Of a stretch of DNA of 64,000 bases, positions 3,798 to 34,764 are shown piece by piece. Source of the DNA: a virus (taxonomy: Duplodnaviria; Caudoviricetes); IMG/VR virus record IMGVR_UViG_3300032234_000388, positions 1 through 64,000 of that record. One strand, given 5' to 3'. Every line of letters starts with the position of its first letter. Positions within the stretch are counted from its first letter, which is position 1. The position numbers were made by a program, and so were the translations under genes. The notes beneath the pieces were generated by a model, which saw only the letters and a list, made by a program, of their open reading frames with translations, was not told where the DNA came from and ran no database searches.

Positions 3798-4805
3798 TTA
3801 TTTGATTTGATTCCAAACTCTCAATCTAATTTGATTTGTTAGATCATTAGGCAATGGCACATAATCTAATTCTAGTGCTGCCTGCTTGCCATTTCTAAAA
3901 GCCCAATCGAAGAACTTGAGTGCTTCTTGACTTTGTTTTTGATCTTTAGGATCTTTGTACATAAGGATAAAGCTAGCTGTACTTACAGGCCATACATTAT
4001 CTCCACGTTGATCAACAATGCTCAATCCCATGCCCGGTACACTAAACCAATCAGCACCTGCGGCTGCGGCGGCAAATGTAGTGTCATCTGGATGTACCCA
4101 CTTGCCTGATTTATTTTGCAACTGTAGATAGACTAAATTGTTTTTCTTAACGTAGGCAAATTCTACATAGCCTATTGAACCCTTTACACGAGCTACGTTA
4201 GCAGCAACACCTTCGTTGCCTTTACCTCCCATTGCTGTAGCCGGTAGCCACTTAACTGCCGGGCCTTTACCTACCTTATCTGCCCATTCTTTAGATACTG
4301 TGGAAAGATAATCAGTCCAGTTGAATGTTGTGCCTGAGCCATCTGCACGATGAACTACAGTAATTGGTTGATCTGGTAACTTCTTGCCTGGATTCAATGC
4401 AGTAATTTTAGGGTCATTCCACTTGGTAATCGTACCCATAAACACTTCTGCCATTACCGGCCCTGTAATGCGTAGCTCGCCTGGTTTAAATCCCTGTAGA
4501 TTAACGATAGGAACTGTGCCGCCAATAATTGCTGGAAACTGTACCAGACCATCTTTGTCTAGATCTTCACCTTTCATAGGAGCATCAGTGGCTCCAAATA
4601 TGACTGTCTTAGCTCGAATTTGACGGATGCCGCCTGAACTTCCAATTGATTGATAGTTAAGTCCCACACCTGTGGCCTTTTTATAATCTTCGGCCCATTT
4701 AGCATAGATCGGATATGGAAATGTTGCGCCTGCTCCTGTGATGTCTGCTGCTTGTGCTGTAACAGCAATGCTCATTGCCGCCAGTAGTGTCAGTAATTTT
4801 TTCAC
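3798..4805 (-). CDS. pstS: phosphate ABC transporter substrate-binding protein
   Basis: Signal peptide; GAGATFPYP, YQSIGSSGG and HRADGSGTT motifs; GTG start at 4805 follows AAGGAG. Confidence 0.95.
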   Translation of the reverse strand: MKKLLTLLAAMSIAVTAQAADITGAGATFPYPIYAKWAEDYKKATGVGLNYQSIGSSGGIRQIRAKTVIFGATDAPMKGEDLDKDGLVQFPAIIGGTVPIVNLQGFKPGELRITGPVMAEVFMGTITKWNDPKITALNPGKKLPDQPITVVHRADGSGTTFNWTDYLSTVSKEWADKVGKGPAVKWLPATAMGGKGNEGVAANVARVKGSIGYVEFAYVKKNNLVYLQLQNKSGKWVHPDDTTFAAAAAGADWFSVPGMGLSIVDQRGDNVWPVSTASFILMYKDPKDQKQSQEALKFFDWAFRNGKQAALELDYVPLPNDLTNQIRLRVWNQIK

Positions 4806-33485: not shown

Positions 33486-33520
33486 ACCGATTCGCTCCCG
33501 GGATTGGCAGTTTGTGGTAC

Positions 33521-33550
33521 ACCCAGGCCCTAAAAAGCCTGGGTTTTTTT
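33521..33550 (+). terminator. intrinsic terminator
   Basis: acccaggc-cctaaaaa-gcctgggt-tttttt. Confidence 0.8.
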
Positions 33551-33632
33551 GTGGCTCTAATACAACACCGTTTGGATTGCATTTTGGACAAAGTTGTGTT
33601 ATACTAACAGTATTAACACATAGGAGCTAACA

Positions 33633-33860
33633 ATGCTAAACACAACACATAAACGAGTTACACTAATAAAAGAAGTTATGTGGAACGAGCAAATGGACGG
33701 CAACGAACTGTTTGATGCTGTACTTAAGGACGAAGCTGGGGAAGTGCGTGTTATGCGTTGCTGTGAGTGCTTTGACATAGACTTTTTTATGCAGCATGAG
33801 TGGGACGACTGCATTACACTAGAGGAATACGTTGTAGAATACATTGACAACTGGAAATAA
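33633..33860 (+). CDS. acidic hypothetical protein (TC/CC-free island gene 1)
   Basis: Own promoter and GGAGCTAA RBS; no Pro or Ser. Confidence 0.75.
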   Translation: MLNTTHKRVTLIKEVMWNEQMDGNELFDAVLKDEAGEVRVMRCCECFDIDFFMQHEWDDCITLEEYVVEYIDNWK

Positions 33861-33870
33861 GGAGCGGACT

Positions 33871-34161
33871 ATGCTAACAACAACAACACAATTACGTGAA
33901 ATTATTAGAGAAGTGCTAGCGGACGTTGGCGGCGCAGCTTGGACTACTTGGACTGACAGAAGAGCACACGAACGCAAACAACGAACTAACATGCGCTATG
34001 TAGTGTTTAAAATTGACAGAGTTGGCAGAGACGGAGACATAGGCTGTGTTGAGGCACGTGTTAACGTGTTGTTGCGTATACGCGGATTTAGCAACAGAGT
34101 GCGTGTTACTAGCAATTATAAATTTGGCGGCTACTTACGTGCTAATGCACAATTAGGTTGA
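33871..34161 (+). CDS. basic hypothetical protein (TC/CC-free island gene 2)
   Basis: GGAGCGGACT-ATG; no Pro. Confidence 0.75.
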   Translation: MLTTTTQLREIIREVLADVGGAAWTTWTDRRAHERKQRTNMRYVVFKIDRVGRDGDIGCVEARVNVLLRIRGFSNRVRVTSNYKFGGYLRANAQLG

Positions 34162-34217
34162 CATTTTGGACAATGTGTGCTATAATGTACACATAAACTA
34201 AGCAACTAGGAGCGAAA

Positions 34218-34457
34218 ATGAATAAAATTAAAATTGTAGACACAGTGGATAACAGGTACTTTGTTAGTGCTACAACTAGCGGAAGTACTAGCGACATTTA
34301 CTTAACAGATGGCACTACAACTGTTAAGCTAGAGGACTGTTTAATTTGGGACAGTGAGCTGTTTGAGGACGCGGAGTTTTACGACGTTGTTAAACACTGT
34401 AAAGCTAACGGCGGAGTAGGAGTAGACAGCTACGAGGGCTGGAGCATTGTTGCATAA
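34218..34457 (+). CDS. acidic hypothetical protein (TC/CC-free island gene 3)
   Basis: Own promoter and GGAGCGAA RBS; no Pro; all Ser encoded by AGY. Confidence 0.75.
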   Translation: MNKIKIVDTVDNRYFVSATTSGSTSDIYLTDGTTTVKLEDCLIWDSELFEDAEFYDVVKHCKANGGVGVDSYEGWSIVA

Positions 34458-34539
34458 AGCGGTTGACAAATTGGACAAAAGGTGTTATACTACACATGTA
34501 GTACAAATTAACTAACTTCGGAAAAGAAAGAAAGAACAT

Positions 34540-34764
34540 ATGAACAAATACCAAAAGGCCGCAGCCCTAGACCTCGTCAAAATTACGGGCATCGTAGTAG
34601 CAGTCAGCATCACAATGAACATACTGGCCCTGTACTTCACAGTGGCACAGATCCTAATTGGACTAGGTCTAATCCTAATGACCTACACGGGCTACAACCT
34701 GTTCCAACTGCGTGTGGATCAGTTACGAACCCTGGACGAGATCCGCGAGCGTCAGAGTAAATAA
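34540..34764 (+). CDS. small 2-TM membrane protein
   Basis: Own promoter; two hydrophobic segments. Confidence 0.7.
   Translation: MNKYQKAAALDLVKITGIVVAVSITMNILALYFTVAQILIGLGLILMTYTGYNLFQLRVDQLRTLDEIRERQSK

Follow-up and report, generated by a model that had tools for sequence, protein, structure and literature searches.

A three-gene early island free of TC and CC on its coding strand in an uncultured giant phage

Coliphage CAjan reportedly carries dPreQ0, a motif-specific 7-deazaguanine modification, at GA and GGC. In the Pseudomonas jumbo phage PA5oct, resistance to restriction points to modification of G within GA and/or GG, QueE- and PTPS-like genes have been reported, and modification-dependent END nucleases, which act early, count PA5oct among their targets (preprint PMC12191111). 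Here, we analyse an island of three small early genes that contains neither TC nor CC (together, YC) on its coding strand. The island occupies positions 33570–34518 (+ strand) of the first 64,000 nucleotides (nt), hereafter the window, of IMG/VR record IMGVR_UViG_3300032234_000388, which represents 56% of an uncultured giant phage of ~360 kb. By DnaB helicase, the nearest cultured relatives of this phage are PA5oct-like Pseudomonas jumbo phages (52% identity). In CAjan and PA5oct the modification falls on G before a purine (GR), and reading this context on the opposite strand gives exactly the TC and CC that the island avoids. The complete relatives of the phage share FolE and QueD with such systems, as well as weaker QueE-like and QueC-like matches. 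They differ from them in that DpdA is not detected here and in that modification in this clade is presumed.

Several other systems resemble the island in part. In purine bias (Dierksheide et al. 2026, PMC13323073), UC and CC of the nascent RNA are likewise avoided, codon usage is likewise rewritten, and the effect likewise begins with the transcript. However, purine bias is genome-wide and graded, whereas the purge of the island is absolute, extends over ~1 kb, has cost an amino acid, and in relatives includes GA and GG. CmdTAC is also a dinucleotide-reading defence that acts on phage messages, and is aimed at T4-like phages. Its motif, GA, is abundant in the island, and its authors judged escape by motif loss implausible, yet a dinucleotide has been eliminated here. 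Precedents for motif-free sequences are the ACA-less mRNAs that escape MazF, the GCU-poor transcripts that escape MqsR, and the avoidance of restriction sites in phages. They follow the same logic, escape by absence of the site of a sequence-specific agent, but involve motifs of 3–6 nt, cost no amino acid, and are not limited to one strand of one unit. Immediate antidote genes, such as Ugi of the uracil-DNA phage PBS2 and the pre-early (first-step-transfer) genes of T5, also encode small acidic early proteins that act before host attack on unusual or incoming DNA, although to our knowledge no compositional purge has been noted in them. In the literature we found no paper describing such purged islands, nor a description of genes that avoid a modification motif on one strand.

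The tract comprises 949 nt with zero TC and zero CC on the coding (non-template) strand, delimited by the final upstream CC at 33568–69 and the first downstream TC at 34518–19. As the complement, the template strand contains no GA or GG. All 151 C of the tract come after a purine (A, n = 96; G, n = 55). The count agrees with the first-pass annotation, made from the letters alone, which had described a three-gene tract of ~950 nt without YC. GA (n = 71) and GG (n = 49) are present on the + strand at normal frequency, indicating that the avoidance is strand-specific, as that annotation had also held.

The tract has no counterpart in the 198,723-nt record. The runner-up YC-free runs measure 184 nt (+ strand) and 135 nt (− strand), so that the similar runs elsewhere that might have spoken against the island do not occur, and for every other dinucleotide the gaps are at most 325 nt over the whole record. 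A simple geometric model gives an expectation of ~1e-42 for a YC-free run of 949 nt. When the three protein sequences are held fixed and synonymous codons are redrawn from the usage of the genome (20,000 draws), 28.4 ± 4.6 YC are expected, with a minimum of 12 in any draw. The observed zero in this codon-controlled comparison indicates that selection has acted on the nucleotides as well as on the amino acids. The absence of TC and CC excludes TCN serine codons and all NTC and NCC codons from the three genes, and the encoded proteins P0001, P0002, and P0003 (75, 96, and 79 aa) contain no proline; the lack of Pro, TCN Ser, and NTC codons had been recorded in the first pass and is confirmed. The folding energy of the island is ordinary after correction for GC content. 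A chance origin is rejected outright. An assembly artefact is rejected as well, since the island recurs across independent assemblies, and so is a cause at the level of translation, since untranslated regions (UTRs) and codon junctions are purged too.

To survey relatives, one flanking gene and two protein families from relatives' islands were used as probes against IMG/VR and other assemblies, and the set was enlarged by contigs retrieved through close homologs of the window proteins. Some of the contigs come from lake metagenomes (for example ENA ERZ28594402 and ERZ28594182). With a strict island defined as zero YC over at least 300 nt, the same avoidance, which the first-pass annotation had thought worth checking in homologs, is found in 70 distinct islands of related uncultured giant phages, totalling 46.8 kb, the longest being 1341 nt. 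In all 70, the purged strand is the coding strand of small early genes, and an island comprises one to about six genes. Selection has maintained the purge in many relatives. A genome has at most one island: among complete relatives, G001 (353 kb) carries a single one, G003 has a lone 227-nt cassette, and G004 lacks both an island and every cargo family. No such island is present in the first 50 kb of T4, and no DNA match for the island, near or distant, was found in cultured phages.

The cargo varies between phages. It comprises a GMQD family, named for its conserved C-terminal E-Q/W-G-M-Q-D/E motif, a helical family (~50 aa, C-terminal DYYVD), the P0003 family, and several orphans, all of them Pro-free. 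In L208/L209, where gene 2 is 95% identical to that of the window, an unrelated 55-aa gene, flanked by conserved promoters, takes the place of gene 3. Together with the repeated promoter and terminator elements, this swap suggests cassette exchange there by recombination at the repeated elements. In L001 (345–465 and 905–945), the identical terminator sequence AAAGGCCCTACTAACACTAGGGTCTTTTT stands on both sides of an island cassette. The GMQD protein of the purged islands is stand-alone, with 107–159 aa. Low-GC relatives (L143, L160, L149, L137, and L122, at ~4000–4350) carry the GMQD domain (AGDSIWD ... YTDSGF ... FTEQGMQEDG) inside much longer open reading frames (ORFs), which have normal YC and contain prolines. 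We dropped these matches as a control because they are domains in longer ORFs and not orthologous small genes.

The boundaries of the islands coincide with those of transcription. Among 43 islands with a detectable first promoter, the last YC falls in the spacer of that promoter in 14, down to 4 nt before the −10 box, in the −35 box in three, and at most 30 nt upstream of the −35 box in 16. Promoters internal to islands, which are crossed by upstream transcripts, contain no YC; a repeated promoter of L016 has a TC in its first copy but not in a later one. On the 3′ side, YC reappears in a terminator stem or as the following gene begins. This pattern indicates that the constraint rests on transcribed DNA, from ~+1 to just past the last small gene, and not on duplex DNA generally.

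Isolated exceptions give a measure of the constraint. We define a leak as an isolated YC with at least 150 nt of YC-free sequence on both sides. Of 34 leaks, 27 are located within ORFs, at all relative positions, and seven are intergenic, close to the intergenic share of island length. The constraint is thus equal in coding and non-coding transcribed DNA. TC and CC do not differ among the 34 leaks. The leak rate is ~0.06 per 100 nt, compared with ~7.5 normally, a ~130-fold depletion that indicates a real cost per site; the existence of isolated leaks indicates that one YC is not lethal. A leaky lineage, L026, contains ~1 YC per 100 nt.

The constraint does not extend to early genes at large. 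The record has ~17 σ70-type early promoters (TTGACA-N17-TATAMT) on the + strand between 22.0 and 35.2 kb, and the island is located near the end of this early region. The remaining early genes of the record contain 8.4 YC per 100 nt, compared with 7.1–7.6 in long ORFs. Early genes other than those of the island are therefore not depleted, indicating an all-or-none pressure that concerns the island cargo specifically. Such a pattern fits genes expressed when everything else cannot be, or need not be. The core proposal of the first-pass annotation, that some agent targets YC, or template GR, at the time when these genes have to be expressed, is supported by the 70 islands, by their start with the transcription unit, and by the all-or-none pattern.

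In some relatives the purge includes both strands. Stretches free of TC, CC, GA, and GG together are present in L117 (424 and 322 nt), L150 (423 nt), L125, and L118. The ORFs in those of L117 and L150 encode no D, E, G, W, or P and have no GGAG ribosome site. Because GA and GG are the reverse complements of TC and CC, both DNA strands are here cleared of one and the same step, and the simplest reading is a DNA-level reader that meets its motif on either strand. In most islands, that of the window included, only the template strand is clean of GR. A scan of the PA5oct genome reveals no kb-size island. It contains segments of 217, 149, 143, and 141 nt free of all four dinucleotides, far above chance at ~16 target steps per 100 nt. 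The 217-nt segment (NC_071039.1 267341–267557) consists of two tandem promoter-plus-leader units (TTGCAA-N17-TATAAT) and is positioned directly 5′ of a tRNA cluster. In addition, the small PA5oct gene gp099 encodes no proline and has one YC in 213 nt.

The explanation that we favour, though tentatively, is that the island is the shadow of guanine hypermodification at 5′-GR-3′, the template strand of first-response genes being kept clean. The virion DNA of the clade would carry a 7-deazaguanine-type replacement wherever G precedes a purine, and modified template positions would act as roadblocks right after injection, either because host RNA polymerase stalls at them or, more probably, because a host defence excises or cuts at modified bases. 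Where the template has no modified positions, transcription from the incoming genome could start immediately even though that genome is fully modified, and the island would deliver counter-defence or take-over proteins ahead of all other products. Abasic sites and nicks in the template stop transcription, and by our own reasoning those in the other strand should not. We infer four elements of this explanation: modified DNA in this phage, the GR motif, the block by modified template positions, and the functions of the three proteins. Together they would account for the strand, the start at +1, the intergenic purge, the cost per site, the all-or-none pattern, and the two-strand variant. That PA5oct, the closest cultured relative by DnaB, has purged segments is in support.

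The genes of complete relatives bear on this explanation. FolE (E ~1e-40) and PTPS/QueD (E ~1e-15) are present above Pfam cut-offs in all four complete relatives (G001–G004), and a QueE-like ORF is located within a few kb of FolE in most FolE-bearing records. For the QueE-like gene of G001, the best NCBIfam matches are five QueE models (E 3e-15 to 2e-9). G001 also has a weak QueC-like gene (~26–30 bits). Immediately 5′ of FolE in G001, near the QueE-like gene, is a 367-aa ORF (L219 7127–8227; G001:147127–148227) without a Pfam, NCBIfam, or PADLOC match, which is a candidate DNA transglycosylase. Among candidate phage-encoded readers or helpers, neither RegB nor a C5-methyltransferase was found.

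A number of points weigh against modification as the explanation. The modified G of this phage and its uncultured relatives is deduced, and we know of no evidence that 7-deazaguanines block RNA polymerase. The genes behind the ~17 other early promoters have an ordinary template in which GR is present, and TTGACA, which itself contains GA, is kept as the −35 box in most early promoters. The QueE-like and QueC-like matches are below curated cut-offs, and FolE, QueD, QueE, and QueC genes may also serve tRNA queuosine. The pathway genes are absent from the 199-kb record (56% complete). DpdA/TGT (PF01702) was not found in G000–G004; the same search is also negative in PA5oct, where modification has been deduced, so this negative carries little weight. 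G004 has FolE, QueD, and QueE yet no island, and the explanation does not account for these genes there. Finally, YC is at a normal level in RefSeq gp052 of PA5oct, which may or may not correspond to the 'gp52' described as anti-END1 in the preprint. The first-pass annotation had offered hypermodification of virion DNA in a GA/GG context as one of two options. The two-strand purge, the modified G deduced for PA5oct, and the FolE, QueD, and QueE-like genes strengthen this option, and the failure to detect DpdA/TGT weakens it little. Nothing was found that links the carbamoyltransferase and glycosyltransferases cited in that annotation to the purge, although no test aimed at them was made.

Messages blind to the termination factor Rho, a possibility not raised in the first-pass annotation, are a rather unlikely alternative. 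Rho has six primary sites, each binding 5′-YC (PMC12360218), or 'up to six CC or UC dinucleotides' (PMC13323073). Messages without UC and CC would offer nothing to these sites, and YC-free genes would be transcribed fully even with lagging ribosomes, forming a hard-wired immediate-early class. That UC and CC are avoided while AC and GC are retained or enriched corresponds to the specificity of the primary clefts (PMC12360218, PMC13323073), and Rho avoidance is known to shape coding sequences, as in the purine bias of Bacilli (PMC13323073). The purge begins with the transcript and covers 5′ UTRs and intercistronic RNA, with zero YC over 949 nt, and lone YCs within ORFs, which make up 27 of the 34 leaks, are tolerated. 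In T4, added Rho limits in vitro transcription to immediate-early RNA, although the relationship between T4 and Rho is itself unresolved (PMC2988021). However, Rho requires several YC within ~80 nt, so that the first few should be near-neutral, yet the depletion is ~130-fold and all-or-none. A graded, cooperative dependence is expected of Rho, and our test did not find it. Early genes outside the island show no depletion although they share its promoter type, and the first 50 kb of T4 lack such a run. Rho cannot account for the fact that relatives and PA5oct also avoid GA and GG on that very strand. Moreover, the presence of Rho in the host is an assumption, and a Rof homolog was not found in five related genomes or records (Psu was not searched for).

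The second option of the first-pass annotation, escape from a sequence-specific host enzyme by genes that encode its antidotes, is unlikely in our view. An enzyme of the host, or a host-shutoff enzyme of the phage, would attack single-stranded RNA (ssRNA) at YC, and the island would encode inhibitors in defence-proof messages. The candidates are an endoribonuclease, for example of the HEPN type, or a base modifier such as an ADP-ribosyltransferase. We know of no enzyme with YC specificity, which counts against this. The logic of an antidote fits the all-or-none pattern with its strong selection at each site, the start at +1, and a cargo of small acidic proteins that varies. As precedent, CmdT ADP-ribosylates the A in GA of ssRNA (bioRxiv 10.1101/2024.02.24.581662), and cytidine ADP-ribosylation of RNA exists (PMC12945103). 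The GA/GG-free genes of relatives lack a GGAG ribosome site, which escape from a CmdT-like enzyme would predict, but GA is abundant in the island of the window (n = 71), and GA/GG-free genes are found only in some relatives. Cleavage between cistrons ought to do no harm, yet the purge is equally complete in intergenic RNA, and single YCs are present in mid-ORF. In addition, two independent enzymes with reverse-complementary specificities would be needed by chance. Of this second option, an RNA-targeting enzyme still stands, but an RNA-editing deaminase is improbable, since NNC-to-NNU changes are silent and NTC and NCC are nevertheless absent.

A host agent that acts at the DNA level on ordinary GR/YC, namely a nickase, a DarT-like ADP-ribosyltransferase of single-stranded DNA (ssDNA), or an ssDNA cytosine deaminase combined with repair, is very unlikely. 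It would attack incoming phage DNA, and the island would keep targets off the strand on which transcription depends. Deaminases of the APOBEC and DddA types classically act in TC and CC contexts, and the reverse-complement symmetry in relatives fits an agent of this kind. The DarT2 motifs TNTC and TCTN contain TC, and DarT1 targets G in ssDNA (PMC12945103), but DarT2 leaves CC unexplained, damage to the non-template strand does not stop transcription, and the rest of the genome would be fully exposed. A mere mutational footprint, whether of transcription-coupled mutagenesis or of an APOBEC/DddA-like cytosine deaminase, is rejected, because gene 4, just downstream, has the same promoter type and normal YC and because silent NTC and NCC codons are absent too.

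The first-pass annotation had placed the island directly after a terminator and with promoters of its own, and this arrangement holds, the three promoters being of the σ70 type. An intrinsic terminator at 33521–33550 (+ strand; hairpin ACCCAGGC / GCCTGGGT followed by a T-run) ends the upstream early gene. The last YCs before the island are in this terminator, at 33556–57, and at 33568–69. The first promoter, P1 (33577–33605, + strand; TTGCAT-N17-TATACT, with TG upstream of the −10 box), lies ahead of genes 1 and 2. Gene 1 (33633–33860, +) encodes P0001, which is acidic, Cys-rich, and Pro-free, and gene 2 (33871–34161, +) encodes P0002, which is basic and Pro-free; the Shine–Dalgarno (SD) sequence of each is AGGAGC. 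The internal promoter P2 (34158–34186, +; TTGACA-N17-TATAAT) overlaps the end of gene 2, is YC-free, and lies ahead of gene 3 (34218–34457, +), which encodes the acidic P0003. The SD sequence of gene 3 bears a leader tag, GGAGCGAA, at 34200–34217. Just 5′ of the island terminator, a hairpin at 33487–33512 has the loop TTCGCTCC, the complement of this tag.

Promoter P3 (34463–34491, +; TTGACA-N17-TATACT) is within the YC-free tract and drives gene 4 (34540–34764, +), an unpurged gene for a 74-aa membrane protein that has normal YC and forms the 3′ limit of the island. Judging from the −10 box at 34486–34491, the tract ends ~20 nt into the P3 transcript. A small membrane-protein gene likewise follows the island in L013, L035, L043, and L210.

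The spacers of the three promoters had been read in the first pass as recoded regulatory DNA, which is borne out in part. The internal promoters do look constrained, but the case for P1 is weak. Its homolog in L208, a 95%-identical relative, has a TC in the spacer where P1 of the window has none, and the YC-free spacer variants GAACAA and GAGCAA are present outside the island too. The idea that the element TTGGAC is an inverted GTCCAA site was rejected; the spacer is simply variable.

P0001, P0002, and P0003 have no match in Pfam or PHROGs and no PDB relative; the cargo of relatives likewise lacks Pfam and PHROG matches, except for a sub-threshold match to DUF7336. P0001 has an ortholog in L208/L209. 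For P0002, only two homologs (95% and 89% identity) were found among the 52–168-aa proteins of a 5.8-billion-protein collection, and searches of PDB sequences and of the ESM Atlas gave no match. The P0003 search returned 32 proteins at 59–100% identity, the query included. An alignment of 24 P0003-family proteins (23 from the search and that of L017; 27–90% identical to P0003) contains 1909 residues and no proline.

An AlphaFold2 model was obtained for the P0003 family (predicted local distance difference test score, pLDDT, 86), and the model of the GMQD family has a pLDDT of 88. On these predicted structures, Foldseek finds no PDB match, and the best VIA Z values are 3.4 and 5.3, respectively. 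A structure search of BFVD returned only unnamed viral proteins. A resemblance of the GMQD family to Lockin, a 3′cADPR-binding protein, was too weak to be usable (probability 0.72, template modelling score 0.34–0.44). GMQD relatives were not found in cultured phages. From position, size, charge, and turnover, we infer that P0001–P0003 are counter-defence or take-over factors.

Some further features of the phage and its relatives were recorded. A ferredoxin-dependent bilin reductase is encoded in G001 (L248; G001:38233–38787), G002 (L249), and G003 (L250) and not in the island-less G004. G001 contains a transfer-messenger RNA (tmRNA) gene and 32 tRNA genes (L213 4882–5318; L214 18125 to L215 6330; L228 7481–7765). 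The radical-SAM family has 3 to 19 matches in each of G001–G004 and G011–G014, many in tandem arrays (G011, 159–187 kb). As clues to the host, no close cellular relative of the Na+/H+ exchanger was found, and psbA was not found in any of 16 related genomes or records.

A dinucleotide seems too short a site to be escaped by avoidance, yet ~1 kb has been cleared of it completely, an amino acid has been given up for this, and the state has been preserved across deep divergence. This indicates a strong reader that acts site by site in the first minutes of infection and has not been described previously. Whichever reader is responsible, the islands are a marker, legible from sequence alone, of the very first genes that a giant phage needs, and they present a pre-sorted set of probable counter-defence proteins. 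PA5oct gp099 and the four-dinucleotide-free segments of PA5oct provide an entry point in a cultured phage. The islands also bear on the old question of how T4-like phages handle Rho in early transcription. It is possible, although we would not yet call it probable, that the islands are a genomic 'negative image' of context-specific guanine hypermodification and represent a new strategy that spares the template strand of first-response genes. If so, modification motifs would be readable from sequence, and the cargo, P0001–P0003 together with the GMQD and small-helical families, would be a pre-sorted set of new counter-defence proteins.

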